Of a stretch of 43,606 nt of DNA, positions 3,029 to 43,606 are shown piece by piece. The DNA is from Polyangiales bacterium (lineage in GTDB: Bacteria > Myxococcota_A > Polyangia > Polyangiales > Houyiibacteriaceae): NCBI GenBank assembly GCA_048550275.1, contig JBLYYU010000248.1, positions 1-43,606 of the forward strand, written 5' to 3'. Position 1 is the first letter of the stretch. Every line of letters begins with the position of its first letter. The translations under genes and the position numbers were made by a program. The notes below the pieces were generated by a model. The model ran no database searches, was not told the origin of the DNA, and saw only the letters and a list, made by a program, of their open reading frames with translations.

Positions 3029-3478
3029 CTACTCCGTCTTCACTTCGCCGCCCTCGTTGCGAAGGGCCTGGTTGAGGGTGTGCCACCCGAGGGTGGCGCA
3101 TTTGACGCGCATCGGAAACTCGCGAACGCCAGCAAACACGGCGAGCTTGCCTAGCGTCTCGAAGTCTTCAGCGGCGCCGTCGTCGCTCGTCAACATCGTG
3201 TGGAACTTTCCGAAGAGCCGTTCGACATCGGCGAGCTTCCTGCCCTTGATCGCCTCGGTCATGGTCGAGCACGACGCTTGCGAAATGGCGCAGCCCTGAC
3301 CGACGAAGCCAATGTCGGTGATGGTATCGCCGTCCAGTTGCAAGCGCAGGGCGACCTTGTCGCCGCAAAGCGGATTGTACCCGCGGCCTTCACGATTGTA
3401 CGGCTCTGGGAATTGGTGGTTCCGCGGGTTCTTTCCGTGATCGAGGATCACTTCTTGGTAGAGCTCACGAAGATCCAT
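3029..3478 (-). CDS. sufU: SUF-type Fe-S scaffold/sulfur acceptor SufU (NifU/IscU-like)
   Basis: LYQEVILDHGKNPRN, NPLCGD, GQGCAISQAS and CATL are the SufU/IscU signature Cys motifs. The ATG overlaps the sufS stop by 1 nt (TGATG). Confidence 0.85.
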   Translation of the reverse strand: MDLRELYQEVILDHGKNPRNHQFPEPYNREGRGYNPLCGDKVALRLQLDGDTITDIGFVGQGCAISQASCSTMTEAIKGRKLADVERLFGKFHTMLTSDDGAAEDFETLGKLAVFAGVREFPMRVKCATLGWHTLNQALRNEGGEVKTE

Positions 3479-4734: not shown

Positions 4735-5948
4735 GTAACCTCCCGAACCTCTTCGCCGCGAGGGACTCTGGCGAGCAGCGCTTCCCGCATTCGCGTGCGC
4801 GTCGGTTCATGGCTCACCCGGTCGACGATCGACTCGAGGAAAGCATATGTGAGCATCGTATGCGCCAGCTCCTCGGGGATGCCGCGAGTGCGCAGGTAGA
4901 AGAGCTGGTCCTCGTCGAGCGCGCCGACTGTGGCGCCGTGGCTGCAAACCACGTCGTCGGCGTCGATTTCCAGATGCGGTTTGGTGTGCACGGTAGCGGA
5001 GTCGGAGAGCAGCAGGTTGCGGTTCTCCTGATGGGCCTCGGTCTTCTGAGCGTCGCGGTGAACGATGACGACGCCGTCCCAGACGGCTGTCCCCTTCCCC
5101 GACGCTATCCCGCGGTACGTCTGCTCGCTTCTGCAATGGGGCGCCTGATGCTCGACCAAGGTGTGGTGGTCGACATGGTCCTCGCCCTCTACCAGGTAGG
5201 CGCCGTCGAGCTGGCATTCAGCACCTCGGCCCTGGAGAAGGCAGCGGACGTCGAAACGATGAAGCGCGCCGCTGAGGGTCACCACGGTCGATCGGTACCG
5301 GCTGTCCGCATCTTGCCGGACGTCGACGCGGCCGACTTGCAACCCGGCGTTCTCGTGCACGCGAACGTGGCTCATCTTGGCGTTTCGGCCGAGCTCGATC
5401 TCAACGACGGAGTTGGTGAGGCGCTCCCCTCGGGTACCGGCGTAGCTCTCAATCAGCGTGAGCTCCGCGGACTCGCCCAGGGTGACGAGCATGCGTGGAT
5501 ACGAGACGCTCGATTCGGGTCCCCCGGACATCAGGTGGCGAACCTCAACCGGCAATTCGACGCATTCGCCGGCAGGGACATCGATCCAAATTCCGTCTTC
5601 GAACAGGGCGGTGTTGAGGGCCGCGAAGTGGCTGGGAGCGCCCGCAAGTTCGAGGCGCCCGTCGAGGAGGTCGGGCTCTTCCGCAAGGACCTTCGCGAGA
5701 CTCCGGGCGACCACTCCGTCTGGAAGCTCGGATGAGAAGGCTGGCGCGCTGTCGCGGTCGCGCGAGAAGTCCGCACCGACGATCGAACGCACCGGAGTGA
5801 AGCGCCAGGCCTCGGTGCGTTTCGTGGGCAGCCCGTCGCTGCGAAGGTTGTCCGCCGCACGGTCACGAAGCCCACGCAGCCAGTCGGGCCCGGTGTCGAA
5901 CGAGCTGGGTACGCTCGCGAGCAGCGTCTGCTGGTTTGCTCCAGTCAC
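4731..5948 (-). CDS. sufD: Fe-S cluster assembly protein SufD
   Basis: It sits between sufC and sufS. The C-terminal region (HQENRNLLLSDSATVHTKPHLEIDADDVVCSHGATVGALDEDQLFYLRTRGI) is the SufB/SufD beta-helix signature. The GTG start overlaps the sufC stop (GTGA). Confidence 0.85.
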   Translation of the reverse strand: MTGANQQTLLASVPSSFDTGPDWLRGLRDRAADNLRSDGLPTKRTEAWRFTPVRSIVGADFSRDRDSAPAFSSELPDGVVARSLAKVLAEEPDLLDGRLELAGAPSHFAALNTALFEDGIWIDVPAGECVELPVEVRHLMSGGPESSVSYPRMLVTLGESAELTLIESYAGTRGERLTNSVVEIELGRNAKMSHVRVHENAGLQVGRVDVRQDADSRYRSTVVTLSGALHRFDVRCLLQGRGAECQLDGAYLVEGEDHVDHHTLVEHQAPHCRSEQTYRGIASGKGTAVWDGVVIVHRDAQKTEAHQENRNLLLSDSATVHTKPHLEIDADDVVCSHGATVGALDEDQLFYLRTRGIPEELAHTMLTYAFLESIVDRVSHEPTRTRMREALLARVPRGEEVREVT

Positions 5949-6697
5949 GGTTGCTGGGCGTCCCGAACCTCGGCGTACCCCTCTTTTTCGAGCTGCTTCG
6001 CGAGATTCTTGTCTCCGGTTCGAACGACCCGGCCATCGATGAGGACATGCACGACGTCCGGAACGATGTAGTCGAGAAGGCGCTGGTAGTGCGTGATGAC
6101 GAGCATGGAGCGCTCGGGGCCGCGTAGAGCGTTCACGCCTTCGGCGACGACCTTCAGTGCGTCGATATCGAGCCCAGAATCGGTTTCGTCGAGCACGGCG
6201 AGCGACGGCTCGAGCATGGCCATCTGGAAGATTTCGTTTCGCTTCTTCTCACCGCCGCTGAATCCGTCGTTGACCGAGCGCTTGGTGAGCTCGTCCGGAA
6301 GCTGAACCAGTGCTGCTTTCTTTTTCGAGAGCATCATGAAATCGATGGCGTCGAGAGGCGGCTCGCCGCGGTGTTTTCGAATCGCGTTGAGTGCGGCCTT
6401 GAGGAAGTAGATGTTGCTCACCCCGGGTATCGCCACTGGGTACTGGAAGCCGAGAAACAGGCCTTCCGCGGCACGCTGTTCCGGTTCCATGTCGAGCAGA
6501 TCCTGGCCCTTGTAGGTGACCCGGCCTCTCGTGACCTCGTAGCCGTCGCGGCCCGCCAATACGTACGCGAGCGTGCTCTTGCCGGAACCGTTCGGCCCCA
6601 TGATCGCGTGTACTTGCCCCGCCTCGATCTCGAGGTTGATCCCCTTGAGGATGACTTTGCCGTCTACTTCGACGTGCAGGTCCTCGATCTTCAACAT
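5945..6697 (-). CDS. sufC: Fe-S cluster assembly ATPase SufC
   Basis: Walker A GPNGSGKST, ABC signature FSGGEKKR, Walker B LAVLDETDSGLD and VITHYQRLL. Confidence 0.95.
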   Translation of the reverse strand: MLKIEDLHVEVDGKVILKGINLEIEAGQVHAIMGPNGSGKSTLAYVLAGRDGYEVTRGRVTYKGQDLLDMEPEQRAAEGLFLGFQYPVAIPGVSNIYFLKAALNAIRKHRGEPPLDAIDFMMLSKKKAALVQLPDELTKRSVNDGFSGGEKKRNEIFQMAMLEPSLAVLDETDSGLDIDALKVVAEGVNALRGPERSMLVITHYQRLLDYIVPDVVHVLIDGRVVRTGDKNLAKQLEKEGYAEVRDAQQP

Positions 6698-8145
6698 CAG
6701 CCGACCGCTCCTTCCAAACTAACGCCGAGGAGCTTCTGCGCCTCGACCGCAAATTCCATCGGCAGCTCTTTCAACACCTGCTTGGCGAAGCCGTTGACGA
6801 TCAAGCTCACCGAATCCTCTTCGGAGAGCCCGCGTTGCCGGCAGTAGAAAAGCTGGTCGTCTCCGATGCGCGACGTCGTAGCCTCGTGCTCGAGCTTCGA
6901 AGAGCTGTTCCGCACGTCGACGTACGGAACCGTGTGCGCGCCACACTTGTCACCGATCAGAAGCGAGTCGCACTGAGTGTAGTTCCGCGCATTGCTGGCA
7001 CCGCGGGAGATCTTGACCCCGCCGCGGTACGTCTGCTGCCCGTGCCCGGCGCTGATACCTTTGGAAATAATGGTAGATTTCGTGTTCTTGCCGAGGTGGA
7101 TCATCTTGGTGCCCGTATCGGCTTGCTGCCGGTGGTTGCTCAAGGCCACCGAATAGAACTCCCCGATCGAGTCGTCTCCCTTGAGAATGCAGCTCGGGTA
7201 CTTCCAGGTGATCGCCGAACCAGTCTCCACCTGCGTCCAGCTGATCTTGGAACGCGCGCCCTCGCAGAGACCGCGTTTGGTGACGAAGTTGAGGATGCCG
7301 CCCTTCCCGTTCTCGTCGCCGGGGTACCAGTTCTGGACGGTGGAGTACTTGATCTCGGCGTCTTGATGAGCGACGAGCTCGACGACGGCCGCATGCAGCT
7401 GGTTCTCGTCACGCATCGGCGCGGTGCAGCCTTCGAGATAGCTCACGTAGCTGCCCTCATCTGCGATGATCAGAGTGCGCTCGAACTGCCCGGTCTTCGC
7501 GGCGTTGATTCGGAAGTACGTGGAGAGCTCCATCGGGCAGCGAACGCCTTTTGGAATGTAGACGACCGAACCGTCGCTGAACACCGCGCTGTTCAGCGCC
7601 GCGTAGAAGTTGTCCGAGACCGGGACGACCGAACCGAGGTACTTCCTGATCAGCTCCGGGTGCTCCCTCACCGCCTCCGAGAACGGCATGAAGATGACGC
7701 CGACCTCGGATAGCTTTTTGCGGAACGTCGTCGCGACCGAAACGCTGTCGAAGACTGCGTCGACCGCCACGCCGGCGAGCACTTCGCGTTCGTGCAGCGG
7801 AATTCCTAGCTTTTCGTAGGTTTCGAGGAGCTCCGGGTCGACTTCGTCGAGGCTCTTGGGTGCGTCTTCATTGGTCTTGGGTGCAGCGTAGTAGCAGATG
7901 TCTTGGAAATCGATTCGCGGGTAGCTCACCTTCGCCCAGGTCGGCTCTTTCATCTCGAGCCAGCGCCGGTATGCCTTGAGCCGCCACTCGAGCAACCACT
8001 CGGGCTCTTCCTTCTTGTTGGAGATGAAGGCGACGATCTCTTCACTCAGACCGGGCGGAGCGTACTCTTGCTCGATGTCGGTGACGAAGCCTGCGTCGTA
8101 TCTCTTCTTGAGAAGGTCGTCGATTTGTTCGGTGCTTGCTGACAT
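6697..8145 (-). CDS. sufB: Fe-S cluster assembly scaffold SufB
   Basis: 482 aa with characteristic SufB blocks ([45 protein letters not shown]). Confidence 0.95.
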
Positions 8146-17648: not shown

Positions 17649-17769
17649 CGCAGCCTCCAAGAGTTCGAACTAGACGGTTTGCCCCGCGGATTCAAGGGGC
17701 TGGCCGTCTTGACAATCTTCTGCAATTCGTGCCACGAGCGTCAGTCCACCGACGCTGCCCGATGAAGCC

Positions 17770-31020: not shown

Positions 31021-32397
31021 TTAGGCAGCCGACTCCGGAATCTCGGGAGTGTCGATCGCGGAGATCGCCGCGTCGACGTCGTCCTGGCTGAGCTCGTGAC
31101 GATGCAGCTTGCCTGCGAAGTAGGCCTCGTACGAGGACATGTCGAAGTGGCCGTGGCCGCAGAGGTTGAACAGAATGACCCGCTTTTTGCCCTCTTCCTT
31201 GGCTTCATTCGCCTGCCGAATCGCGGCCGCGACGCCGTGGTTGGCCTCGGGGGCTGGGATGATGCCTTCGGCGCGGGCGAAAAGCACACCCGCTTCGAAG
31301 CTCTCGATCTGATCGATCGCCTCGGCCTCGATCAAGTCGTCGTGGAGGAGCTGACTGACCAGCGCACCCGCACCGTGATAGCGCAAGCCGCCTGCATGGA
31401 TTTTCGCCGGGACGAAGTTGTGACCCAAGGTGTACATCGGAATCAGCGGTGTCATGCCGATGGTGTCGCCGAAGTCGTAGCGGAACACGCCACGAGTGAG
31501 CTTCGGACAGGACGTGGGCTCGACCGCCAGGCAGCGGATGTTCTTCCCCTCCACGAAATTCATTCGAAGGAACGGGAAGCTGAGGCCGGCGAAGTTCGAG
31601 CCACCGCCAAACGGGGCTATCACCACATCTGGAAGCTCGCCCGCCTTTTCCATCTGCTTGATCGCCTCTTGGCCGACGACCGTCTGATGCGTGAGCACGT
31701 GGTTGAGCACGCTCCCGAGCGAGTACTTGGTGTCCGGATCGCTGGCGGCGCGCTCCACGGCCTCGGAAATCGCGATCCCGAGGCTTCCCGGTGAATCCGG
31801 ATCGCCAGCGAGGATCTTCCTGCCCGCTTCGGTCTGCGGGCTAGGCGAAGGGATCACCTCGGCCCCCCAGGTGTTCATCATCAGCTTACGGTATGGCTTC
31901 TGATCGTAGCTGATGCGTACCATGTAGACTTCACAGCCCACACCGAAATGCTGGCAGGCATAGCTCAAGGCGCTTCCCCATTGGCCGGCCCCGGTCTCGG
32001 TCGTGATTCTCTTCACGCCCTCTTGCTTGTTGTAATAGGCCTGCGCGACGGCAGTGTTCGGCTTGTGCGAACCGGCCGGACTGACGCCTTCGTACTTGTA
32101 GTAAATGTGCGCAGGCGTATCGAGCGCCTTTTCGAGCCCATAGGCCCGAAACATCGGAGACGGTCGCCACTGCGTGTAGATCTGCCGGACCTCGTCGGGA
32201 ATCGGAATCCAACGGTCCTGGCTGACTTCCTGCTCGATTAGAGCCATTGGGAAGAGCGGCGCCAAAGCCTCCGGGCCAATCGGCTCCTGGGTCGCCGGGT
32301 TGAGCGGCGGCAACGGCTTGTTCGGCATGTCCGCGACAATGTTGTACCAACGCTCGGGGATTTCGTTCTCTTCGAGAGTGATCTTGGTTTGCTTCAT
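31021..32397 (-). CDS. trpB2: TrpB-like PLP-dependent enzyme, type 2 (TrpB2)
   Basis: [54 protein letters not shown] (PLP Lys), [12 protein letters not shown] and GGGSNFAG. There is no trpA or other trp gene nearby. Confidence 0.9.
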
Positions 32398-32478
32398 GGC
32401 GTCGGGGAGCCTACCAGCGCTTTGCCTCGTAGACGACCCCTAGATCGACCAGTTCGACCAGAAAGCACATCCGGCCAA

Positions 32479-33780
32479 ATGACCCAGCCCCAAGCTCCTC
32501 AGCTCCGCCGTTCCCTCGGGTTTTGGGCTCTGGTTTTCTATGGCGTAGGCGACATCCTGGGCGCCGGAATCTATGCCCTCGTCGGCAAGGTGGCTGGGGT
32601 CGCGGGAAGCGCTAGCTGGGCGGCGTTCGGCGTCGCTCTTTTCGTAGCCGGCCTGACCGCCCTCACCTACGCCGAGCTCGGCGGCCGCTTCCCGAGGAGC
32701 GCCGGCGAGTCCTTCTTCACCGAGCAGGCGTTCGGGCGCCCCGGCCTGGCCCTTCTCGTCGGCTGGGTGGTTCTTTGTTCGGGCATTCTGTCCTTGGCGA
32801 CCGTTTCGGTCGCGTTCGGCGGCTACATGAGCGGGCTCCTCCCCGGGCTCCCTCCATCGGTCACCATCGTCGGGATTCTACTCCTGCTCGCTGCGATCAA
32901 CTTCCGAGGCATGCGAGAGTCGTCCACCACCAACATCATCGCCACCATGGTCGAGCTAACCGGTCTATTGATCGTGATTGTGGCAGGTGCCCTCTTCCTC
33001 GGACGCGACTCCGCTTCTGGCATCGCCCAAACCATCGAGAGCAGTCGCAGCGTCGGGTGGACAGAGATCGCCAGCGGGGCCGCGCTAGGGTTTTTCGCCT
33101 TCATCGGGTTCGAAGACATGGTCAACGTCGCCGAAGAGGTGAAGGACCCGGAGCGCAACATGCCGCGCGCGATTCTGATTGCACTTTGCGTCACGGGCGT
33201 CGTCTATTTGCTGGTAGTGCTCGTCGCGACGAGCGTCGTTGCGCCCGCCGTGCTTGCCGACTCAGAAGCGCCACTCCTCTCGGTCGTTCAACGAGCCACG
33301 GACGTCGTCCCCGATCGTCTCTTCGCGACGATCGCGCTCTTCGCAGTTGCCAACACGGGCTTGCTCAACTTCATCATGGGCTCGCGCCTGATCTACGGCA
33401 TGTCGCGACAAGGACTTCTACCGGCGGCGCTCGGCAAGGTTCACCCTAGACGGCGCACTCCGCACCTCGCCATCCTCGCGGTTCTAGGCGTTGCCCTGGT
33501 TCTGGCGCTCTCGGGCACGCTCTCCTACCTCGCCGGCACGACGAGCCTGCTCCTGCTTCTGGTCTTCTTCACGGTCAACGTCTCGCTCGCAACAATCAAG
33601 CGGCGCGACCGGGGCGCGATACGCACATTTTGCGCGCCTCGACTCGTGCCGATCGCGGGTGCGCTGAGCTGTCTTGGCTTGATGCCATTCGTGCCCCGAG
33701 GTTCGCTCCTGACGGCCGCAACCATTCTCACGCTAGGCGCGGGCCTGGTGGCCCATCGCGGCCGGACGCGAGCCGCCTAG
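32479..33780 (+). CDS. APC-superfamily amino acid permease
   Basis: The ATG at 32479 gives MTQPQAPQLRRSLGFWALVFYGVGDILGAGIYALVGKVAG, the typical APC TM1 with its GxG unwound motif. About 12 hydrophobic segments follow. Confidence 0.8.
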   Translation: MTQPQAPQLRRSLGFWALVFYGVGDILGAGIYALVGKVAGVAGSASWAAFGVALFVAGLTALTYAELGGRFPRSAGESFFTEQAFGRPGLALLVGWVVLCSGILSLATVSVAFGGYMSGLLPGLPPSVTIVGILLLLAAINFRGMRESSTTNIIATMVELTGLLIVIVAGALFLGRDSASGIAQTIESSRSVGWTEIASGAALGFFAFIGFEDMVNVAEEVKDPERNMPRAILIALCVTGVVYLLVVLVATSVVAPAVLADSEAPLLSVVQRATDVVPDRLFATIALFAVANTGLLNFIMGSRLIYGMSRQGLLPAALGKVHPRRRTPHLAILAVLGVALVLALSGTLSYLAGTTSLLLLLVFFTVNVSLATIKRRDRGAIRTFCAPRLVPIAGALSCLGLMPFVPRGSLLTAATILTLGAGLVAHRGRTRAA

Positions 33781-34052
33781 TCGTCTTCGGGCTTGGGCGC
33801 TGCGTGCGGAATCGAGGGCCGAAATTCGGCCTTGCGAAGGTCGATAAACACGATGACCAGGAACAGGGCGAATGATAGCGTGCCAATACCTTGGCCGACC
33901 GACATCGCCATCATCACGGGAATCCAACCCTGGTCGAAAAGCGACCAGCTCATCAGCGCCAGGCCGATCAGCCCGAGCCAGCAAGCCCAGACCATGAGCT
34001 TCGAGCGCGACGCCGTGTCGAGGAACTTCGTGATTCGGGCTTTCGCGTTCAT
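33777..34052 (-). CDS. Small two-TM membrane protein, coupled to the NapC/NirT-like cytochrome gene
   Basis: 91 aa with two hydrophobic helices (LMVWACWLGLIGLALMSWSLF, IGTLSFALFLVIVFI). The ATG overlaps the upstream stop (ATGA at 34049-34052). Confidence 0.45.
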   Translation of the reverse strand: MNAKARITKFLDTASRSKLMVWACWLGLIGLALMSWSLFDQGWIPVMMAMSVGQGIGTLSFALFLVIVFIDLRKAEFRPSIPHAAPKPEDD

Positions 34053-34726
34053 GTCCCCTCCGGTGCTGGCGTTTGGAGCGCCGAATGTGCCTCACCATCG
34101 GATGGAGTTTCCTCTTCCGGCTTGCTAAAAGGATGCGCGTAGCCATGGCAACCCGCACTCACGCAGCTCGTCTCGCCGGTGCGCAGGTCGTCGAGAAGCC
34201 CGACGTGGTCCTGTGTGCCGTTCCAGATGCTCCCGGTCGTGCTGTGGCACTGCATGCAGTTGTCGTTCTTGAAGGGTCGCACGATGTGAATCTTCTCGAT
34301 GACCTCGTCGCGATCGTAGAACATCCACTCGCTGAGGAACTTGTAGACGTGGCCCATGCCGCCGATCTTGGTCATGGCGTAGCCGAACATCCCGTAGTCT
34401 TTGTGGCAGACGTAACAGCTCTTCTTGCCGAACTTGTGGCTGCGCGAATGAATGGCAGCGAGGGACTCGCTCTCCGAATCGTTCGCGTCCTCGATCCACA
34501 TGTCCATGGTGTGGCAACTGCCGCAGAACCCCTGACGCTCGGTCGCTGCGAGGCCCTCCATGTTGCCGATCATTGCGACCATGATCGGCAGCACGCCGAC
34601 GCCGAGCACCATCACCGACTTGCCCGCGGCGTCGAGTGGCGGCCGGCGGATCAAGTAGTAGAGCATGATGCCTGCCGCAACGATTGCGCAGGCGAGGCCG
34701 ATCCAGGAAAGAGGCGATACGTGCAT
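34049..34726 (-). CDS. Membrane-anchored NapC/NirT/NrfH-like multiheme cytochrome c (3 CXXCH plus 1 CX4CH)
   Basis: Two N-terminal hydrophobic helices, then FCGSCHTM (the C-x-SCH-x-M context typical of NapC/NrfH heme 1), CYVCH, CMQCH and CVSAGCH. Confidence 0.75.
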   Translation of the reverse strand: MHVSPLSWIGLACAIVAAGIMLYYLIRRPPLDAAGKSVMVLGVGVLPIMVAMIGNMEGLAATERQGFCGSCHTMDMWIEDANDSESESLAAIHSRSHKFGKKSCYVCHKDYGMFGYAMTKIGGMGHVYKFLSEWMFYDRDEVIEKIHIVRPFKNDNCMQCHSTTGSIWNGTQDHVGLLDDLRTGETSCVSAGCHGYAHPFSKPEEETPSDGEAHSALQTPAPEGT

Positions 34727-34732
34727 GGTTCA

Positions 34733-36058
34733 GTGGGCTCACCGCGGCGACGCGCGGAGCAGCATGACCATGATCCAGGATCGGGTCGCAATGCAAGCGA
34801 GAAGATCGGCCACGCAGCCCGCTGGGCGCTCGGACTCGCAGCCGCAATTGCCTTGACGTTTGCTGGGACGGTTCTGACGCCGCCTTCCACCGCTGGCGCC
34901 CAGCCTCACAGTGTGGGCGCGGAGCTTTGGGGGCAGCTCGACCCCAATGTCGGACTGATCGTCATAGAAGGATCGACGAAGAAGTATCCGTACGTCGACG
35001 CCGAAGCACTCGTCTGGGGTGGCGCGGGTTCTCCCCAATACGGCCTGCGTGGCAATGAGGCAACCTTCGAAGCACTCGTGGTTTCGCTCCGAGTGCGTGA
35101 TCCGAAAGGGATCAGCGATGCACGGCTAGGGCGGTTCATTCTCGGAACCGGCGCTGTCCGGGCCCAGCACATCGACGGCGGGCACCTCACACTGCGCGCG
35201 CCGTCGAAGACCCACTTCGAGGTGTTTGGCGGAGTGCCGGTAGACGGCAATCTCGACGGGCGCAGGTACGACTGGATTGCCGGCGGTCGAATCTCGCAAG
35301 GGCTCGGAAAGATCGGCGTGATCGGCGGCTCTTACTACAACCGCTACAACGCCGGACAGCGTTCAGACGAAGAAGTAGGTGTGGACTTCTCCTTGCGCGC
35401 AGCGAGCTGGCTAGACATGGCCGCCAAGTTCTCGTGGGAGATTGTGAACCCGGGTCTCGCAGAGGTGCTCGCCACCATTTCGTCGCAGACCAACAATCGG
35501 AAATTCCGAGGAGAGCTCTTCGCGAGCAAACGCAATCCCACGCGCTTCCTGCAGCAGACTTCGCTGTTCACGGTCCTGGGAGACCTCGGGACCCTGAAAA
35601 CCGGTGCGAATCTTTTCTGGCGTGCGGCGCCGCGGCTCGACCTCACGATGGAAGGAGCGGCACAGCAGGCCTCGAACCAATGGGGCTGGAGCGGCTATCT
35701 TCGAGGGCTCTTACGAACCGACGATGAGGGCAAGGGCAGCGTCCTTGGCGAGCTGCGACGGCAACAGGTCGCCGACTCCCGGTGGACGGGAATCCGACTC
35801 GCTTCGGTGATTCAGCTCTTCGAAGACGTGCGCCAAACCGTCGGGCTGATGCCCGAATTCGAGGTCATCATTCCGGACGACCGGAACTCCGTCACCGGGC
35901 GGGCCTGGCCATGGGGTCGGCTCGCGCTGCGCTATCAGCACGAGTCTGGATGGACCTTCGCGGCCGCGGCGGAGGCAAGCGCCAACCAAGTTCAGCGGCT
36001 CGACGTCCGAGGGCTCGCTCGAGTCGCCTATCAGCGCACATGGCACGGGAAGAAATGA
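34733..36058 (+). CDS. Exported protein, candidate outer-membrane beta-barrel (porin-like partner of the downstream cytochromes)
   Basis: Signal-peptide-like ARWALGLAAAIALTFAGTVLTPPSTAGA. Many short amphipathic stretches rich in Gly/Tyr/Trp/Arg (IGVIGGSYYNRYN, VGVDFSLRAA, AKFSWEIV, WGWSGYLRGLLR, GRLALRYQHE, WTFAAAAEAS). The C-terminus is LARVAYQRTW-HGKK. There is no ATG, so the start is GTG at 34733 or 34721. The stop overlaps the next ATG (ATGA). Confidence 0.45.
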   Translation: MGSPRRRAEQHDHDPGSGRNASEKIGHAARWALGLAAAIALTFAGTVLTPPSTAGAQPHSVGAELWGQLDPNVGLIVIEGSTKKYPYVDAEALVWGGAGSPQYGLRGNEATFEALVVSLRVRDPKGISDARLGRFILGTGAVRAQHIDGGHLTLRAPSKTHFEVFGGVPVDGNLDGRRYDWIAGGRISQGLGKIGVIGGSYYNRYNAGQRSDEEVGVDFSLRAASWLDMAAKFSWEIVNPGLAEVLATISSQTNNRKFRGELFASKRNPTRFLQQTSLFTVLGDLGTLKTGANLFWRAAPRLDLTMEGAAQQASNQWGWSGYLRGLLRTDDEGKGSVLGELRRQQVADSRWTGIRLASVIQLFEDVRQTVGLMPEFEVIIPDDRNSVTGRAWPWGRLALRYQHESGWTFAAAAEASANQVQRLDVRGLARVAYQRTWHGKK

Positions 36059-37113
36059 AACAGATCGTCGCACTCACATTCCTGGTGCTGCTCGCGGGTT
36101 CTGCCGGGGCCTGCGCGAAGATGCTGGGCCTCGAGCAAGAGAAAGAAAGCTCGGCGTTCGAGCACCGCGCACACGTTGTCGAAGGGATTAACTGCCTCGA
36201 GTGTCACGCCGGGATCCAGGAAGCGGGCGATACCGGACCGCTGCACATGCCTTCGACGGCTGATTGCGTCTCATGCCATGAGGAGCCGCATGACCCGAAC
36301 ACCTGCTCGGACTGTCACGGCCGGGCACGCAACCGGCACGCCGCCGAGATGGCTCGCAAGCACCTGCGTTTCTCGCACGTCACGCACAACGAAGAAGGCG
36401 CGGGCGACTGCGTGCGCTGCCACGTGAACGTCACGACGGATGCGGACTACGTTCGCACGAAGCACCCGACTTGCCTGAGCTGCCATGCGCACAAGGGCCA
36501 GTGGGACACTCGCGACTGCGGTGGCTGTCACGTCGATCTTCCGAGCGAAATGGCGCGGCCCGAAAGCCACGTAGTTCACGACGGCAACTTCCTTCGCGAG
36601 CACGGCGTGCAAGCAAACGCCCAAGGTGACCTGTGCACGGCCTGTCACACGCAACGCGAATGTGCCTCCTGTCACGGCGTGACGGTTCCGACCATCCCGT
36701 CGAGGTTCCGCTTCGACGCCCCGATGCGCGACTCGATGCACCGAGCAAACTTCATCTCGGTCCACGACATGCAGGCCGCCGCTGACCCGGCCGCCTGCAT
36801 CACCTGTCACAGCGAGCTCTTCTGCGTCGATTGCCATACCCGCCTGGGCATATCGGGCCTCAATGCATCTCGCGGAAACCCGCATCCGCCAGGCTGGTCC
36901 GGTCCTCCCGGCGCCCCCAACACACACGGGCGGGCCGCAAGGCTCGACCCGCTGTCTTGCGCGAGCTGTCACGGCGGCGCAGGCGAAACCCTCTGCGTGA
37001 GCTGCCACCAGGTCGGCGGACCAGGCGGTAACCCCCATCCCACTGGCTTCAACAGCCGACTCAGCAAGGCCAACGACCTTCCTTGCAGGCTCTGCCACAT
37101 CGGAGGCCTATGA
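36055..37113 (+). CDS. 13-heme c-type cytochrome, probable lipoprotein (c3/c7-like repeats)
   Basis: MKQIVALTFLVLLAGSAGAC (signal plus Cys). 13 CXXCH motifs in 352 aa. There are recurrent F-x-H-x2-H segments (FEHRAHV, FSHVTHN) as in c7/c3 modules. Confidence 0.85.
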   Translation: MKQIVALTFLVLLAGSAGACAKMLGLEQEKESSAFEHRAHVVEGINCLECHAGIQEAGDTGPLHMPSTADCVSCHEEPHDPNTCSDCHGRARNRHAAEMARKHLRFSHVTHNEEGAGDCVRCHVNVTTDADYVRTKHPTCLSCHAHKGQWDTRDCGGCHVDLPSEMARPESHVVHDGNFLREHGVQANAQGDLCTACHTQRECASCHGVTVPTIPSRFRFDAPMRDSMHRANFISVHDMQAAADPAACITCHSELFCVDCHTRLGISGLNASRGNPHPPGWSGPPGAPNTHGRAARLDPLSCASCHGGAGETLCVSCHQVGGPGGNPHPTGFNSRLSKANDLPCRLCHIGGL

Positions 37114-38657
37114 AGCGGGCCGCGATCCTGGCCTTGGTGTTCTTGGCGCTCGGATTCGTGGCCGGGTACGTCTTCGCGGCATTCACAACCGACGTTGTTC
37201 CGACGATCACGGAGCAGCGCGCAGCAGGTCCCACCCGTGAGGTCTCGGTCGACTGGCACGTCGACAAGTTCTCGCCCGGGCATTCTCAGCACGTCGTAAA
37301 CCACGCCCTTCAGTGTAACGATTGCCATGACCCCGCCCGGTCGGACTTCAAAGAGGTCGACATCGGCGTCTGCACGAACTGCCACCTCGAGCAGACGTCT
37401 CACCCCCATCTCGACCAAGATGGCGAAATCACCGAGTGCCTCACCTGCCACTCCTTCAAGTTCAACGCTGAGCCGGACAGCCCCTGGGACTGCGTGCGCT
37501 GCCACGGGCCTTTCGATACGCCGACTCACACGGGCCTCGCGATGCACGATCAAATCGCCTGCGCGAACTGCCACCATCCGCATAAGCCGACATCTCAGAC
37601 GGCCGCAGAGTGCAACGACTGCCACGAAGCACTCAAGGTTCAGCACGGGCGCCCCAAGCTCAGCGGTACCTGCGCGGATTGCCACGGCGGCCACAAGCTC
37701 GCCGCGGAGGCCCCGGCCTGCATGGAGTGCCATGCGAACGAGAAACCCCGGGTGCCTAAGTCAGCGGTGTTCGCAGACGGCCACGATGCCTGCGTCGACT
37801 GTCACGAGCCGCACGCGTTCTCGGCAGCGAGCGCGCTTCAGTGTGGGAGTTGTCATCGTCGCAAGCCGGTCTTTGCCCAGAACACCGCGCGAGAACACCG
37901 GGATTGCAGTAGCTGCCACGAGCCCCACGCCGTTCGCGCTGCCGGCGACCGAAGCTGCAAGGGTTGCCACGAAGACATCGCATCGACCCATGTCGCCGAG
38001 GGCAAGTCGGACTGCGTCTCCTGCCACGATCCGCATCCGAAGCGTCGGGCGCAGATCGCGCTGCAGTGTTCGAGTTGCCACGAAGAGGCGAGCTCGGAAC
38101 GCGCCTTCCACGCAGCGAAATCCGTGTGCACCGACTGCCACACGCCGCACGGCTTCGATCTCAGCGGCGCGACGGAGCCAGCATTTTGCGCCTCCTGCCA
38201 CCAGCAGCAGGTGCGGCTCACCAAGCGCATTTCCGACCATTCGAGCTGCGCCGACTGCCACGAGGGCACGTCGCACGCGCTAGAGGACCCGGTGGCCTGC
38301 GCGAGCTGCCACGAGGAGCTCGAACAGTCGAGCCCGGAGGGCCACCGAGACTGCGCCTCCTGCCACGAGCCTCACGGCGGCGCGATGAACGCCGGTGCCT
38401 GCACGAGCTGTCATGAGAACGCCAGCCTCCCCGGCCTGCACCGTATTCCTGGCGACCCCCAAAGTACCGGCCACTCCGACTGCTCGACCTGCCACAACGC
38501 GCACGACGCCCAAGTCCGCGCCGACCGCGCCGCGTGCATGGAGTGCCACGACGACATCGCCAACCACGAACCAGACGCAAAGATCTGCACGGGATGTCAC
38601 ACGTTCATCAGCGGGAAGCCAAAAAGCGCACTGACGCCGAGGGCACGGCCGCGGTAG
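37110..38657 (+). CDS. 23-heme c-type cytochrome with an N-terminal signal/anchor helix (paired-CXXCH repeat type)
   Basis: MKRAAILALVFLALGFVAGYVFA. 23 CXXCH motifs in 515 aa. The unit CxxCH-(E/D/T/N)-(P/A)-H-x9-13-CxxCH repeats. GGAGG lies 5 nt upstream, and the ATG overlaps the upstream stop (ATGA). Confidence 0.85.
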   Translation: MKRAAILALVFLALGFVAGYVFAAFTTDVVPTITEQRAAGPTREVSVDWHVDKFSPGHSQHVVNHALQCNDCHDPARSDFKEVDIGVCTNCHLEQTSHPHLDQDGEITECLTCHSFKFNAEPDSPWDCVRCHGPFDTPTHTGLAMHDQIACANCHHPHKPTSQTAAECNDCHEALKVQHGRPKLSGTCADCHGGHKLAAEAPACMECHANEKPRVPKSAVFADGHDACVDCHEPHAFSAASALQCGSCHRRKPVFAQNTAREHRDCSSCHEPHAVRAAGDRSCKGCHEDIASTHVAEGKSDCVSCHDPHPKRRAQIALQCSSCHEEASSERAFHAAKSVCTDCHTPHGFDLSGATEPAFCASCHQQQVRLTKRISDHSSCADCHEGTSHALEDPVACASCHEELEQSSPEGHRDCASCHEPHGGAMNAGACTSCHENASLPGLHRIPGDPQSTGHSDCSTCHNAHDAQVRADRAACMECHDDIANHEPDAKICTGCHTFISGKPKSALTPRARPR

Positions 38658-38663
38658 GCTGTC

Positions 38664-38720
38664 GGGCCGCGAAAAACGGCGCGACGCGGGGTTCCCGTAT
38701 CGCGCTCTTTTCCGCGCCCC
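38664..38720. terminator. Bidirectional intrinsic terminator hairpin between convergent cytochrome operons
   Basis: The arms gggccgcgaaaaacggcgcga / tcgcgctcttttccgcgcccc pair at 17 of 21 positions plus one G-U. The inner stem GCGCGA/TCGCGC is followed by a U-run on either strand. It fills the 64-bp gap between the stops at 38657 (+) and 38722 (-). Confidence 0.55.
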
Positions 38721-38721
38721 G

Positions 38722-39780
38722 CTAGAACGCGTCTACTCGTCCGTTGATGTGTGGCGCTTCAATCGTAAGCAGCGTGCCTTCGGCATTGATCCCCCGGTGG
38801 CAGCTATTGCACGAGATGGTGGAGTGTCCGGGAGGTGGATTCTGGTGGCAGGCGCCACAGTCGAGGTCCAACCCCTCTTCGTCCCAGGCCACGTCCGGTG
38901 TCGTGCCGCCGCGGACATGGCACGTCGTCGTGCAGTCGCGGGTTTCGAAGTCGTAGCTCGCTCCCTCGGCCCACGCCGGCTGGAAAACCACGTCGACCTC
39001 GCCGTTGCCGTGCGTGCCGACGAGCATCGAGTAGTCCTGGCCGAAGTGGCAGGTCTGGCAATCGAGGCCGCTCGGATTGTTGGCCGATGGCTCGGCGTGA
39101 TCCGCATGCGCGTAGCCAGGTTGCGGGGGGCGGAAGTAACACAGATCCCTTGGTGGATAGGCCCGCTCCCCGTCTCCGTGGCAGGTACCGCAAGCCATCA
39201 CCCCGCCGGGAAGGCTGTGACAGTCGGTGCAATCTGCAGCTCCGGGGGGCGGTTTGATGACCGGCTCGACTGCTTCAGGCGAACCCCGGTGGCAAAGACC
39301 GCAGGCATCCGAACGCGCTGGATCGACGATCGGCTGCCAGTCAGTCGCTCTCAGGTAGGCGCCATGCCAGTCGTCGGCGCGTGGGTCGTTCCACTGCCCG
39401 GGATGCGTGCTGTCGGTCGTGGGGACGGCGCCATCGGTTACCCAGGTTGTTAGCCCACGCCTCTCGTCCTCGGCCAGGAGGTCGGCGTGATCGGGACGCT
39501 CGAGCACGGCAAGGATTGGCGCCGTCTGATCTGACGGCAGCGTAGCGGGCTGACCGTCTGGATCGGGTATGCAGCGAATCGTCTCCAGATAGTCTTCGAC
39601 GCTGTACCCCGCGGACGGCGTCCCGCCGCCGTGGCATTCGACGCAGCGCTGTTCGAGAATGGGATTCACATCCGCAAAGACGAGCGGCGGTTCTTCCCGA
39701 TCACGTGCTTCGTTGCAGCCGAGAAGTGCAACGGTGGCGCAGAGCAACCCGACAAGCCGAACGCTCGTCCGACCGATCAT
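38722..39780 (-). CDS. Multiheme cytochrome c lipoprotein (7 CXXCH plus 1 CX3CH)
   Basis: The ATG at 39780 gives MIGRTSVRLVGLLCATVALLGC (lipobox). Motifs are CVECH, CGLCH, CTDCH, CGTCH, CQTCH, CTTTCH, CGACH and CNSCH. The tail CTTTCH...W...CGACHQNPPPGH...CNSCH resembles the Geobacter/myxobacterial CxxxxCH...CXXCH domain. The ATG overlaps the upstream stop (ATGA). Confidence 0.8.
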   Translation of the reverse strand: MIGRTSVRLVGLLCATVALLGCNEARDREEPPLVFADVNPILEQRCVECHGGGTPSAGYSVEDYLETIRCIPDPDGQPATLPSDQTAPILAVLERPDHADLLAEDERRGLTTWVTDGAVPTTDSTHPGQWNDPRADDWHGAYLRATDWQPIVDPARSDACGLCHRGSPEAVEPVIKPPPGAADCTDCHSLPGGVMACGTCHGDGERAYPPRDLCYFRPPQPGYAHADHAEPSANNPSGLDCQTCHFGQDYSMLVGTHGNGEVDVVFQPAWAEGASYDFETRDCTTTCHVRGGTTPDVAWDEEGLDLDCGACHQNPPPGHSTISCNSCHRGINAEGTLLTIEAPHINGRVDAF

Positions 39781-41864
39781 GGCGCCGGCGGGTTGGGCAG
39801 TAAGTTGGCATGGCAGGTGCCGCATTCGTTGGTAAACGCGACAGGCTGCTCGAGGGGCTCACCGACATCCCGCCAGGGGGTCATCGTCATCCGATGCGTG
39901 GCGATGTCGTTCCAGAAGTACTGGACATCCAGGGTCACGCCCGAGCCTGGATCGAGGAGGGCGGGCACAGCGGCTCCGGAGCGGGCGGTCGGTACGAGAT
40001 GGCAGTCGGCGCAGAGAAGCCCGAAGCCCGAGTGCACTGAATTGCCCGTGGCGGACTCGACGTGACTATCGAGGTTGTCCGGCTCGGCCAAACCACTGTG
40101 GCATGTGGTGCAAAGCGCATTCGGATTCCCCGAGGTATCCATGGCCGCGATGTCATCGTCGTTGGCGTGCGGGCTGTGGCAATTGGTACAAGAGACGAGT
40201 CGAGTGCCGTTTCGATAGTGTCGCGTCTGAATGTGTCCCGAATACTGTTGGTAGTGAGCCTTCTCGTCCCCGGAATCAAAGAAGGCGGCTGGCGCACCGC
40301 CGACCCGGTTGGTGTAGTTCGCCGCAAAGTCTGCGCGCCGGATTCCCGGAGGGGGCATCTCGTTTTCATCCGATAGCGGCAGCCCCGTTTCGCCGGCGCC
40401 GATGCCAAGAGGCCGCGAATGGCAGCTGCCACAGAGCGCGGCTTGGCGGCCTGGGGTCAACAGCCCGGGAGAGACCATGAAACTACCGTTGGGGCTTGGA
40501 TTCAGGTGATCGGAGCCAGCGCCGTGACAGGATTCACATCCCACGTTGAGGAGCTCGAGCCGACCGTCGCCGTCGTAATCGAACGCGCCGCCCGAATCGA
40601 CCACAGCGCTCGCAGACCAGCCGTCCATCTCGCTGCCGCTCAGCGCGTAGCCCGTGAAATGGCAGCCTGCGCAGTTGTTGTCGAAGGAATCAGCGGACGA
40701 CGGCGCGAGATCCGAATCCCGAAGCATGTCGGTGTCGAAGTCGAACCAGAGGTCGGAGCGGTAGTCGCGCCAGGGCCAGTCATCGGAGGTCCCGTTGCCA
40801 GGAAGGCTGCCGTTGTCGAAGTCACCCTCGTAGTTGTACTGAAGGGGCAACAAGAAGTAGCTGAAGCTTTCGTCCGCATTGCTTCGGCGCGTCAGGTACT
40901 GTTGGGCCCCCAATGCGCCGCCGTACGTGAGGACCACATCGTAGCGACGCGTCGGCTGCCCGTTTATGAGATTCTCCATTTGAATGAAGTAGGCGCCAAT
41001 CACTCCAAGTGGCGTGTTCGTGTCCCTTCTCAAATCGATTCGGAACTTCGCGCTCGGACCGGGATTCTGAACTTGCACCTTGCAGTTGGACGGATCTTCA
41101 TGCGTCGAGGCCGCGGCATCGCAGTCGTAGTAGTAGAGGGACGTGCCGGCCTCGAATCCTTCGAGGCCATCATCGAAGCTCGGCCAGGGCTCGACGTCCT
41201 GCAAAATCGAGCGCGAGCCTGGGACTTGAAGCCCCACGTTGTGCGCTGTTCGTGACGTGCTGTGAAGCGCATGGCACCCGAGGCACGTAGACGAACCGAC
41301 GTAGGTGGCGTTCTCGCTCGGCTGAGCGCTCACGCGGATGTCCATCTGCATGCCAATCAGGGATGCCGTGTCAAACGCGACGCTGCTGCTGTCGCCGCCA
41401 GGCAAGTGCAGACCGTCGCCATCGGCGGGGGCCCAGACGATAAAGTGCTCTCCCTCGGGTAGCGTCACAAATCGGTACTCGCCGGAGTCATCGACGGCGG
41501 CCTGCTCGTAGTTCGTGCCGTTGACGTCGAGCAGATCTTCGATTGGCTCGTCGACTTCCAGCATCGCTGTCGCTTCCGGCGACAAGAAGAGATCGATTTC
41601 TGTCTCCGACAGGTCTTCGACGTCGCTTGCTGGTACGAGATACACGGTGCCGCCCTGCACCGGCGTCATGTTCGGCTCCATGACCCTGCCGACGAGCCCC
41701 TCTAGCTCCGGATCGATCTCCTCGCCGGGCGTCTCCCCTGGTGGACCTGGCTCGCCCGGCGGCCCCTGCGGTCCGGGTTCGCCGGTGTCGCCCGTGCAGG
41801 CAACCATGACGAAAGAGGCACACACGCAAAACGAAAGCCAAGAAAACCAGCGGATGGAAGTCAT
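39777..41864 (-). CDS. Octaheme cytochrome c lipoprotein with a collagen-like G-X-Y tether and an N-terminal beta-sandwich-like domain
   Basis: The ATG at 41864 gives MTSIRWFSWLSFCVCASFVMVAC (lipobox); the track's 41882 is a TTG. Then come GDT-GEP-GPQ-GPP-GEP-GPP-GET, and GRVMEPNMTPVQGGTVYLV...DDSGEYRFVTLPEGEHFIVW (CarboxypepD_reg-like). There are 8 CXXCH motifs (CLGCH, CAGCH, CESCH, CGSCH, CTNCH, CTTCH, CADCH, CGTCH). Confidence 0.8.
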   Translation of the reverse strand: MTSIRWFSWLSFCVCASFVMVACTGDTGEPGPQGPPGEPGPPGETPGEEIDPELEGLVGRVMEPNMTPVQGGTVYLVPASDVEDLSETEIDLFLSPEATAMLEVDEPIEDLLDVNGTNYEQAAVDDSGEYRFVTLPEGEHFIVWAPADGDGLHLPGGDSSSVAFDTASLIGMQMDIRVSAQPSENATYVGSSTCLGCHALHSTSRTAHNVGLQVPGSRSILQDVEPWPSFDDGLEGFEAGTSLYYYDCDAAASTHEDPSNCKVQVQNPGPSAKFRIDLRRDTNTPLGVIGAYFIQMENLINGQPTRRYDVVLTYGGALGAQQYLTRRSNADESFSYFLLPLQYNYEGDFDNGSLPGNGTSDDWPWRDYRSDLWFDFDTDMLRDSDLAPSSADSFDNNCAGCHFTGYALSGSEMDGWSASAVVDSGGAFDYDGDGRLELLNVGCESCHGAGSDHLNPSPNGSFMVSPGLLTPGRQAALCGSCHSRPLGIGAGETGLPLSDENEMPPPGIRRADFAANYTNRVGGAPAAFFDSGDEKAHYQQYSGHIQTRHYRNGTRLVSCTNCHSPHANDDDIAAMDTSGNPNALCTTCHSGLAEPDNLDSHVESATGNSVHSGFGLLCADCHLVPTARSGAAVPALLDPGSGVTLDVQYFWNDIATHRMTMTPWRDVGEPLEQPVAFTNECGTCHANLLPNPPAP

Positions 41865-41961
41865 CCTGCCGATAATATGCAACCGGGGCGCGCCTTCAAG
41901 CGAAGACGTGCCCCGGACTGCTGTTTCTGGGCTCTGGTGGCCCTACGTGACCCGCGGGTCG

Positions 41962-43606
41962 CTACGGCCGAGCAATGCTAGGCGAGCCGCCCATCGCCTC
42001 GATCGAATCGACGAGAAGCTGCTTGATGTAGGCCCCGTTGTGGATGTAGCCGCCTGGATCCTTGTCCGCGACGACGAAGTTGTAGGCCGCCGTCAGCATG
42101 TCGAAGTCGAAGTCCAGGTACCGGTTCGGGTAGATCGCCGGCACACCAGCCTTGAACCAGTACGGGTAGGAGCCGCCGTCATACTGCACCGGCGAGTCCT
42201 TGGGAAGCCCCGTCGCGGGGTTGCCCGTATTGGCGTACGCCTGGATCGCCGCCAGCAGCTCGCCCTTCAACGTCTGGATGTCGCTGAAGTTGTTGGTGGG
42301 CGAGCCGCTCATCGTCGGGAAGGTGCTCCCCACGTGGCAGGTATTGCAGTCCGCCACCTTCGGAAGGAAGGTGTGCTTCTTGGCCTCGTCTTCGTCCGCG
42401 TTCATGTGGCAGCCGATGCAATCGACCAGCCCGACCGCGTCTGGCAGGTTCGTGTGAACGCCGAACGGGTTCAGACCGCGGTACGTCTCTCCTTCATACT
42501 GGTACCCACCTCGTACGTCGTTGCCGAAGAGCGTTGCCCCCGCGGCGTAGTAGTGGATGTTGATGAAGCTGTAAGAGTCGTAGACGACGTTCTCGCCGTT
42601 TGGCGTTGCGTCGTTCACGTCGTCCGTCGAGGACCGACCCGGGTGACAGCTCATGCAGATGTTGCTGTTGGTCTCGAGGTTGGCGGTCTCGCCCGACGGG
42701 AACTCTACGTCGTCGAGGGCGGGGTTCGTCGTCAGATCGTCCCATCGCGTCTCGGAGTTCGAGTAGAGATTGAACTGATTGTGACACGAGGTGCAGTCGA
42801 CCGTGGACAAGGGAAGGTGCGCGGTCGTCGATTGCCCCTGGGCAAACTCGGCGAAGCCGTTGGTGTTGTGGCACTTCGAGCATGCGCCCGAGACCTCACC
42901 GTCCTCGTCCCAGTGACGGAACACTTCCGAGGCCGCGTCGCCGTGACCGCTGATCTGCCACTGCTGCGTCGGCGTTGCCGTCCCGATGGCCGAGCCGTTC
43001 GCTGCCAGATCGCCGCGACCGATTACACCGACAGTGGGCGTGCCTCCGAGATCGACGATCGAATCGTAAGCGATTTGCTGCAGGTACGTACCATTGTGGA
43101 TGAACCCAGCGGGGTCCTTCTGGGTGACCTGGTAGTTGTAAGCAGCTGCGAGAAGAGCGTCATCGAACTCATCGTACCGGTTCGGGTACGCAGCGGGTCC
43201 GCCTTCCTTGAAGAAGTAGGGATACGCTTCGGCATAGAAGATGCCGGTTCCAATCACGTTGGTCGCATAGGACTGAATCTGCGCGTAGAGCTCGGGGACG
43301 AGAGCCTCGATGTTGGCGAGGCTCTGTGCGGGCGAGCCTTGAAGGGTCTCGAAGCTGTCGCCGCCGTGGCAGCCAACGCAGGAATCCAGAGCTGGTTCCC
43401 AGGTATGCGGTTCGCCGGCTTCGGCGTTCTGCATGTGGCAGCCCTCACAGGTGGAGAAGTCGTCGGGATGCGAAGGGAAGGTGTTCCTCGGCCGGTAGTC
43501 GAAGCCCTCGTATTCGTACCCCGCCGTCGATTCGCCGCCGTATAGAGAGGCCGCAGCGGCGTAGTAGTGGATGTTGATGAACGTGTGCTGGTCGTTCGCG
43601 TCAATC
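41962..43606 (-). CDS. Multiheme cytochrome c with an internal tandem repeat, 5'-truncated by the window edge
   Basis: The reading frame is open from the window end. My translation upstream of the track's first Met is IDANDQHTFINIHYYAAAASLYGGESTAGYEYEGFDYRPRNTFPSHPDDFSTCEGCHM. Seven CXXCH motifs are visible. The block INIHYYAA...CxGCHM...CxxCH...YPY(F/W)FK...YPNRY...DP(A/G)G(F/Y)IHNG occurs twice. Confidence 0.75.
   Translation of the reverse strand, partial: IDANDQHTFINIHYYAAAASLYGGESTAGYEYEGFDYRPRNTFPSHPDDFSTCEGCHMQNAEAGEPHTWEPALDSCVGCHGGDSFETLQGSPAQSLANIEALVPELYAQIQSYATNVIGTGIFYAEAYPYFFKEGGPAAYPNRYDEFDDALLAAAYNYQVTQKDPAGFIHNGTYLQQIAYDSIVDLGGTPTVGVIGRGDLAANGSAIGTATPTQQWQISGHGDAASEVFRHWDEDGEVSGACSKCHNTNGFAEFAQGQSTTAHLPLSTVDCTSCHNQFNLYSNSETRWDDLTTNPALDDVEFPSGETANLETNSNICMSCHPGRSSTDDVNDATPNGENVVYDSYSFINIHYYAAGATLFGNDVRGGYQYEGETYRGLNPFGVHTNLPDAVGLVDCIGCHMNADEDEAKKHTFLPKVADCNTCHVGSTFPTMSGSPTNNFSDIQTLKGELLAAIQAYANTGNPATGLPKDSPVQYDGGSYPYWFKAGVPAIYPNRYLDFDFDMLTAAYNFVVADKDPGGYIHNGAYIKQLLVDSIEAMGGSPSIARP

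Follow-up and report, generated by a model that had tools for sequence, protein, structure and literature searches.

In porin-cytochrome (Pcc) systems of the OmbB-OmaB-OmcB type, published ranges are 18-22 strands for the porin and 5-14 hemes for the cytochrome; a two-gene pcc that encodes a 12-heme cytochrome is present in Anaeromyxobacter, a member of the Myxococcota (PMC4245776). Pcc porins co-evolve with the inner cytochrome, whereas the outer cytochromes diverge, and atypical CX3-4CH motifs are reported in the outer-membrane, not the periplasmic, cytochromes (PMC4245776). A related concept, PCC3, is predicted in Proteobacteria and has not yet been characterised biochemically; it combines a porin, a heme-dense 'periplasmic' cytochrome of 21-27 hemes and a second large cytochrome (PMC5566968, PMC10734462). 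The 21-27-heme protein is proposed to span the periplasm (PMC10734462). PCC3 was defined in Fe(II) oxidisers, and electrons can pass in either direction through Mto/Mtr (PMC10734462, PMC5566968). Here we describe an island of eight open reading frames (ORFs), g1 to g8, that probably encodes a porin-cytochrome-type envelope electron conduit of an uncultured Polyangiales-related myxobacterium. The island runs from position 33777 to the end of a 43,606-nucleotide stretch (contig JBLYYU010000248.1 of assembly GCA_048550275.1), the whole of which is called the window. Conceptually it lies between the Geobacter/Anaeromyxobacter Pcc and PCC3 and is not categorically new, the principle being known.

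A motif count over the translated genes finds 61 CXXCH motifs, one CX4CH and one CX3CH across six ORFs (34049-43606), reproducing exactly the total and the per-gene numbers given in an earlier note on this DNA. Outside this region (~34 kb, translated in six frames) the window has one CXXCH only, at 17721, so the clustering of heme motifs is far beyond chance. CXXCK is absent from all eight island proteins. The ORF list also confirms the layout described in that note: the minus-strand pair g1-g2 lies back-to-back with the plus-strand genes g3-g4-g5, and g5 converges on the minus-strand genes g6-g7-g8. There are 4-bp overlaps at g3/g4 and at g4/g5. Export signals were judged by sequence pattern and hydropathy, and those proposed earlier were again seen, with lipoboxes in g4, g6 and g7 and hydrophobic N-termini in g1, g2, g3 and g5.

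The barrel was scanned for with one genome per species, and relatives are present in at least 187 species-level genomes. Synteny and heme numbers were compared with a tblastn table and called-gene maps over the 79 loci listed (about 80). All 79 are metagenome-assembled genomes (MAGs), and nearly all carry Myxococcota labels such as Polyangiales, Polyangiaceae, Sandaracinaceae or Labilithrix; DNA of the nearest is only about 80% identical to the window. The divergent core, g1-g2 facing g3-g4-g5, is found in essentially every listed locus with a long enough contig, and it persists in a distant clade at only 37-43% barrel identity. In both clades, most loci also have a g6 homolog close to the core. 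Conservation as a unit, which the note had proposed to check for the whole block, therefore holds for the core in about 80 loci and for g1-g6 across both clades; it fails for g7 and g8, which occur in the close clade only and are clade-specific accessories as judged by gene content. The pairing of barrel and lipoprotein cytochrome extends further. In two remote loci (L084 and L085) the gene after the barrel once more encodes a lipoprotein multiheme cytochrome; that of L084 has 13 hemes, and a NapC-like gene comes after it. This recurrence suggests that barrel plus lipoprotein cytochrome is the minimal module.

The predicted barrel and the heme-dense cytochromes encoded beside it

The plus-strand gene g3 (34733-36058) is predicted to encode an outer-membrane β-barrel of an undescribed family. 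It has no Pfam or NCBIfam family match, and its family comprises 577 clusters at 50% identity (E ≤ 1e-3). An AlphaFold2 model built from a 28-sequence alignment has 22 antiparallel strands (predicted local distance difference test score, pLDDT, 76). All PDB matches listed by Foldseek for this model are outer-membrane barrels (FimD/PapC usher pores, OprD/Occ and AlgE), in keeping with the barrel candidate proposed earlier at this position. The top 50 matches are ushers and porins, with MtrB not among them. A profile of 28 homologs run against PDB chains at E ≤ 10 returned no barrel protein; it gave a spurious RecA-concatemer match in which no single stretch passes. A tblastn search of plasmids with g3 found nothing. 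Hydropathy places a signal-like hydrophobic segment at the N-terminus. Translation begins at GTG 34733 or 34721; an ATG is lacking upstream of this segment. If g3 begins at GTG 34733, the g2-g3 intergenic gap is at most 6 bp, as compared to 21-243 bp in relatives. The tiny gap and missing ATG imply promoters within the neighbouring coding sequences or an unusual g3 start. Promoter and terminator scans over 33400-43606 gave signal no higher than the shuffled expectation.

Overlapping the barrel gene is g4 (36055-37113, plus strand), which encodes a predicted lipoprotein cytochrome whose 13 CXXCH motifs are found here and in 67/67 loci. No other cytochrome of the island is as well conserved (49-55% identity in the distant clade), and g4 begins with a c7-like triheme module. 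Island and published systems were compared through published descriptions and family models, and on these terms a 22-strand g3 with a translationally coupled 13-heme g4 falls inside the Pcc ranges. However, the barrel partner in Pcc is a soluble periplasmic protein, whereas the lipobox Cys of g4 is kept in 119/120 homologs. The island further departs from Pcc in the tethered 23-heme cytochrome and the NapC/NirT-type gene that are fixed within it. The Pcc family was defined by BLAST-level similarity to OmaB/OmbB/OmcB; as an indirect guide to it, the NCBIfam GSU2203 decaheme model reaches 48.5 bits, far below its cut-off of 325.

The most heme-rich protein is g5 (37110-38657, plus strand), in which 23 CXXCH motifs are packed at 22.4 residues per heme. 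Its homologs contain 23, 24 or 26 hemes. Across 24 aligned sequences (37-82% identity), 23/23 CXXCH motifs plus 22-23 further His residues are invariant. This conservation fits bis-His ligation of every heme, and the g5 hemes are apparently all bis-His, as would suit a pure electron wire. The N-terminus is hydrophobic over about 20-30 residues by hydropathy. In the close clade it appears as an uncharged helix of ~20 residues without Cys, whereas the distant-clade ortholog (23-26 hemes) has a lipobox instead. That a tether is kept while its chemistry swaps between helix and lipid speaks for g5 being held at a membrane and not diffusing freely. An alignment of g4 with g5 shows a distant relationship between the two (25% identity over 333 columns). 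The exact g5 sequence has no entry in public assemblies. Profile and PDB comparisons of g5 return only generic c3/c7/Hmc/MtrA-like similarity, and tblastn against plasmids finds one Emticicia cytochrome c3 family gene at 24% identity.

The combination of the g3 barrel and g5 matches the porin and heme-dense cytochrome of PCC3. The porin of Leptothrix cholodnii, a PCC3 member, has 22 predicted strands, as does the g3 model, and both clusters include a second large cytochrome and an inner-membrane component. However, the PCC3 inner-membrane protein has ~300 residues, five helices and two WX3HX13H motifs, and no such protein is encoded here; its counterpart is a c-type NapC/NirT tetraheme cytochrome, g2, accompanied by the 91-residue two-helix g1. 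The outer cytochrome of PCC3 has a median of 34 hemes, as compared to 13 in the island, and the host phylum here is not Proteobacteria.

The putative inner-membrane pair and the accessory lipoproteins

The minus-strand gene g2 (34049-34726) encodes a NapC/NirT-family membrane tetraheme cytochrome, with three CXXCH motifs and a CX4CH at residue 188. It matches PF03264 (NapC/NirT) over residues 38-198 with 41 bits against a cut-off of 24.1, which bears out its earlier description as a NapC/NirT-like membrane cytochrome. Hydropathy indicates two N-terminal hydrophobic helices, the second of which marks the start of the PF03264 match. The four sites are kept in 68-70/70 homologs, with heme attachment at CX4CH assumed; CX4CH itself is found in 70/70, and the first motif reads CXXCHxM in 69/70. 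Heme 1 of NrfH has a Met ligand. g2 resembles NrfH/CymA/NapC in its family match, membrane helix, four heme sites and NrfH-like first motif, and it differs in its CX4CH fourth site, its extra N-terminal helix, its dedicated small membrane partner and the lack of an NrfA-type partner. In NCBIfam searches it scores well under the NrfH, NapC and TorC equivalog cut-offs; for NrfH (TIGR03153) the score is 36.9 bits against 134.2, and the island contains no CXXCK-bearing NrfA partner. g2 is putatively a quinol dehydrogenase.

The small partner, g1 (33777-34052, minus strand), has 91 residues, two hydrophobic helices at about 19-39 and 49-77 by hydropathy, a single His and no heme motif. It has no Pfam or NCBIfam match. 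In most loci its homologs adjoin the NapC-like gene (41-88% identity), and they share the core LMxWSLFD...P[VI]..A[ML]S[VI]GQ..GT.SF.

On the far side of the convergent junction, g6 (38722-39780, minus strand) is a predicted lipoprotein with seven CXXCH motifs and a CX3CH at residue 283. Its residues 257-320 belong to the GSu_C4xC__C2xCH domain family (TIGR01904; cut-off 27, score 41.5 bits). The CX3CH recurs in 40/40 homologs, and 31/33 retain the lipobox. Homologs carry seven hemes in the close clade and ten plus two CX4CH in the distant clade. As a lipoprotein with an atypical CX3CH, g6 resembles the outer cytochromes of Pcc.

The next gene, g7 (39777-41864, minus strand), also encodes a predicted lipoprotein (lipobox in 10/11 homologs), and its eight CXXCH motifs recur in 16/16 homologs. 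Its N-terminal region is heme-free over ~190 residues. The tether that had been called collagen-like is a short Gly/Pro-rich linker of about six G-X-Y triplets, and the comparison with PF01391 (16.3 bits against a cut-off of 27.2) did not sustain that description. Against PDB sequences g7 has a single match, 6i5b_A, at E 0.0018. Over PDB chains in general, g2, g4, g5, g6, g7 and g8 give short generic c3/c7/ActA/Hmc/MtrA-type matches or none.

The last gene, g8 (41962 to beyond the window end at 43606, minus strand), is visible as its C-terminal 547 residues with seven CXXCH motifs; its N-terminus lies past the window end. It had been described as a repeat-built cytochrome, and the duplication is clear: two pentaheme halves of ~330 residues are 45% identical (E 1e-55), and full-length homologs have ten hemes, not seven, in a 5+5 arrangement. 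The 865-residue homolog in locus L004 combines a lipobox and a Gly-rich linker with CHB_HEX_C_1/Fn3_assoc domains, which are typical of extracellular proteins. Against PF22113 (MtrC/MtrF domains II/IV; cut-off 30) g8 scores 29.2 bits, and its full-length homologs score 33.6-34.2 bits with no single stretch passing.

These features allow a comparison with MtrCAB/CymA. The likeness is one of logic: a NapC/NirT quinol dehydrogenase, a cytochrome in a barrel and decaheme surface lipoproteins. It extends to the 5+5 heme duplication of the g8 lipoprotein and its borderline match to the MtrC/MtrF pentaheme domains. However, g3 is not MtrB/PioB-like, having no family match and no PDB sequence match at E ≤ 10. 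The solved MtrB has 26 strands, versus 22 modelled for g3. The MtrA/DmsE and OmcA/MtrC models likewise fail to identify the cytochromes (TIGR03508, best 43 bits against 192.2; TIGR03507, no match in g4-g8), and the island encodes a 23-heme tethered protein instead of a soluble periplasmic shuttle.

No island component reaches the family thresholds of Mtr, Nrf, Otr, Hao or GSU2203. An Nrf, Otr or Hao pathway is rejected by scores far below the cut-offs and by the absence of CXXCK. The earlier note had held that the heme counts and domain combinations of the island match no named system known to it. That statement is overstated, since the Pcc strand and heme ranges and the PCC3 concept provide precedents for the architecture. 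The same note had named three outcomes that would speak against a conduit, and none appeared: the proteins do not map at full length to Nrf, Hao/ONR, Otr or Mtr (family scores lie under the cut-offs and PDB searches are generic), g3 is modelled as a barrel, and the block is syntenic in relatives. Literature searches combining Myxococcota, Polyangiales or Sandaracinaceae with multiheme, porin-cytochrome or extracellular electron transfer (EET) returned no description of this cluster or of a Polyangiales EET system. As judged from sequence, the cluster is real and conserved and its protein family is undescribed; its distinguishing features are a putative tethered 23-heme wire and a predicted lipoprotein partner for the barrel.

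Proposed electron path and competing readings

Our proposed path begins in the inner membrane, where g2 would exchange electrons with the quinol pool, with the two-helix g1 alongside. g5, a 23-heme chain held at its N-terminus, would then carry the electrons over the periplasm without diffusible carriers. The g3 barrel would sheathe a cytochrome on its way through the outer membrane, with its constant neighbour g4 as the most likely candidate, and g6, g7 and g8 would be exchangeable distal or surface modules that contact an extracellular partner. This partner could be Fe(III)/Mn(IV) oxides, humics or, if the flow is reversed, an electron donor. Where the proteins sit, which cytochrome occupies the barrel, which proteins touch and which way the electrons flow are all inferred. 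We favour g4 over g5 as the occupant on three grounds: its conservation is the highest among the cytochromes, its gene is translationally coupled to that of the barrel, and it is the one partner kept in remote loci. This choice would be analogous to the co-evolution of porin and inner cytochrome in Pcc (PMC4245776). For the ten hemes of MtrA, a maximal dimension of about 100 Å is cited in PMC5566968; by extrapolation from this value, 23 hemes would span the periplasm and 13 the outer membrane, a line of reasoning also applied to the 21-27-heme cytochrome of PCC3 (PMC10734462).

Several observations support the conduit. Heme motifs are concentrated in the island, g2 belongs to NapC/NirT, g3 is modelled as a barrel, the 4-bp overlaps couple g3, g4 and g5, and the core and its heme numbers are conserved. 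The distal His residues of g5 are conserved and the position of its N-terminal tether is kept. The CHB_HEX_C_1/Fn3_assoc domains of a g8 homolog and the CX3CH of g6, typical of Pcc outer cytochromes, are consistent with distal roles for these proteins. The absence of CXXCK and of any match to a characterised periplasmic reductase points the same way, as does the proposal that the 21-27-heme cytochrome of PCC3 spans the periplasm (PMC10734462).

Other observations weigh against this assignment. Every island protein falls short of the family thresholds of validated EET proteins, and for g3, g4 and g5 the homologs are without exception 'hypothetical' proteins from MAGs or metagenomes; those with a named organism come from Myxococcota, Polyangiales or 'Deltaproteobacteria'. 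The lipoprotein cytochromes may all face the periplasm. The hydrophobic N-terminus of g5 may be an anchor or, alternatively, a cleaved signal peptide. The AlphaFold2 model of g5 (24-sequence alignment) has a pLDDT of 50 and is unusable, so the length and shape of this protein are extrapolated from its heme number. Finally, cultured Polyangiales are known as aerobes, which makes the physiological acceptor uncertain.

A bolder version of the conduit, which we hold only tentatively, is a hard-wired chain of ~40 hemes whose evolution was independent of Mtr, Pcc and PCC3. Electrons would pass from g2 to the tethered g5 and on to g4, which would plug g3 as LptE does LptD, with swappable cytochromes at the surface. 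If this version is true, mineral, humic or electrode respiration would extend to a large uncultured branch of the Polyangiales, an order regarded as aerobic predators and polymer degraders. The conduit in its general form would have wider consequences. If it functions as proposed, EET would be extended to widespread soil, peat and sediment myxobacteria, the barrel occurring in at least 187 species-level genomes, and the island would be a fourth or fifth independent solution for hemes crossing the outer membrane. It would also serve as a test case for whether a single very long cytochrome can replace diffusible periplasmic carriers and whether a lipoprotein cytochrome can sit inside a barrel. 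Current marker-based tools overlook the cluster, because all its proteins score below the thresholds of existing EET models, and the iron-cycling potential of these habitats may therefore be under-counted. Uncharacterised porin-cytochrome neighbourhoods are, however, a regular yield of genome mining; a published survey reports 440 gene clusters without homologs in the FeGenie HMM library (PMC11475568).

The same conduit could run inward, delivering electrons to the quinone pool from an extracellular donor such as Fe(II) minerals, Mn(II), reduced humics or a partner cell, as proposed for MtoAB/PioAB and PCC3. The nearest concept to include a periplasmic cytochrome of 21-27 hemes is PCC3, which was defined in Fe(II) oxidisers, and its literature describes Mto/Mtr electron transfer as potentially reversible. 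A Rieske/cytochrome b module that some relatives carry in the island (described below) could serve uphill or downhill quinone chemistry. However, the window bears no sign of lithotrophy, its neighbouring genes being of housekeeping or heterotroph type (Suf, DAHP synthase, GH3 glycosidase and acyl-CoA dehydrogenase), and the direction of electron flow is unreadable from sequence. We regard inward flow as rather unlikely.

It is a still slimmer prospect that the cytochromes form a periplasmic network for electron transfer or storage, acting as a capacitor or feeding reductases of soluble substrates; g7 and g8 would then be enzymes and g3 a mere substrate or export channel through which no electrons pass. 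The residues per heme of g7 and g8 (87 and 78) are enzyme-like, both have large heme-free regions, both are faintly similar to models of the octaheme tetrathionate-reductase, c554 and c552 types, and we infer every localisation on which a surface role depends. However, the scores lie far under the cut-offs (for example, TIGR04315 at 24.9 against 375), and neither CXXCK nor another catalytic-heme signature is present. The distant clade lacks g7 and g8, yet its core persists. A mere channel also sits poorly with a barrel that is translationally coupled to and co-inherited with g4, and whose pairing with a lipoprotein cytochrome recurs in L084 and L085. That unrelated cytochrome genes lie together by chance, or that ORFs were over-called, a concern in GC-rich DNA with its many spurious long ORFs, is refuted for practical purposes by the synteny table and conserved heme counts: each gene has hundreds of homologs with heme numbers kept, and order and orientation are conserved over about 80 loci.

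Variation among relatives and genomic setting

The island is modular in composition. In 12-17 close relatives, genes for a Rieske Fe-S protein, a cytochrome b and a 452-residue multiheme cytochrome with a C-terminal helix lie between g5 and g6 (for example, L009:13863-16796; also L014, L017, L022, L023, L025, L026, L028, L033, L039, L042 and L045). The window does not carry this insertion, the space between g5 and g6 being a 64-bp gap (38657-38722). The presence of the insertion in relatives and not in the window indicates that some lineages have coupled the island to a bc-type complex, and its position inside the island ties the latter to quinol-level respiration.

In two distant-clade loci (L002:5197-8791 and L003:5170-8829), accessory cytochromes are found beyond the other end of the core, downstream of the gene for the small membrane protein. 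This set comprises a 221-230-residue protein of no family, a cytochrome of ~440 residues and a GSu_C4xC__C2xCH cytochrome of ~510 residues, and it replaces g7/g8. Two syntenic clusters with 68-72% barrel identity that include the upstream PALP gene are deposited as 'Actinomycetes bacterium' (L023, JAHEJX010000068.1) and 'uncultured Coxiellaceae bacterium' (L028, CAXMND010000168.1); they are probably mis-binned myxobacterial contigs. Two close-clade records, L005 (CP070713.1, 3.54 Mb) and L047 (CP070650.1, 2.78 Mb), are labelled 'MAG ... chromosome', at sizes that are low for Myxococcota. The match to the 13-heme gene in L047 covers only 23% of its length, and the locus yields no 23-heme gene; decay or an assembly problem may be the reason.

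The genes upstream of the island encode Suf Fe-S assembly proteins, 3-deoxy-D-arabino-heptulosonate 7-phosphate (DAHP) synthase, a phosphoenolpyruvate-utilising enzyme, an acyl-CoA dehydrogenase, a GH3 glycosidase and an enolase-superfamily enzyme. These are housekeeping genes, which places the cluster in an ordinary chromosome. The guanine-cytosine (GC) content is even over the window (0.60-0.66). A recent horizontal island is unsupported, given this uniform composition and the housekeeping flanks. A PALP (TrpB-like) gene and an amino-acid-permease-like ORF (31021-33780) lie immediately upstream of the island. Both are syntenic in most close relatives, at 87-95% and 72-87% identity, respectively, so the left border of the island is fixed in the close clade. 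Farther upstream, a complete-looking suf operon on the minus strand (3478-8145), unrelated to the cytochrome island, encodes a SufS-like aminotransferase, SufD, SufC and SufB.

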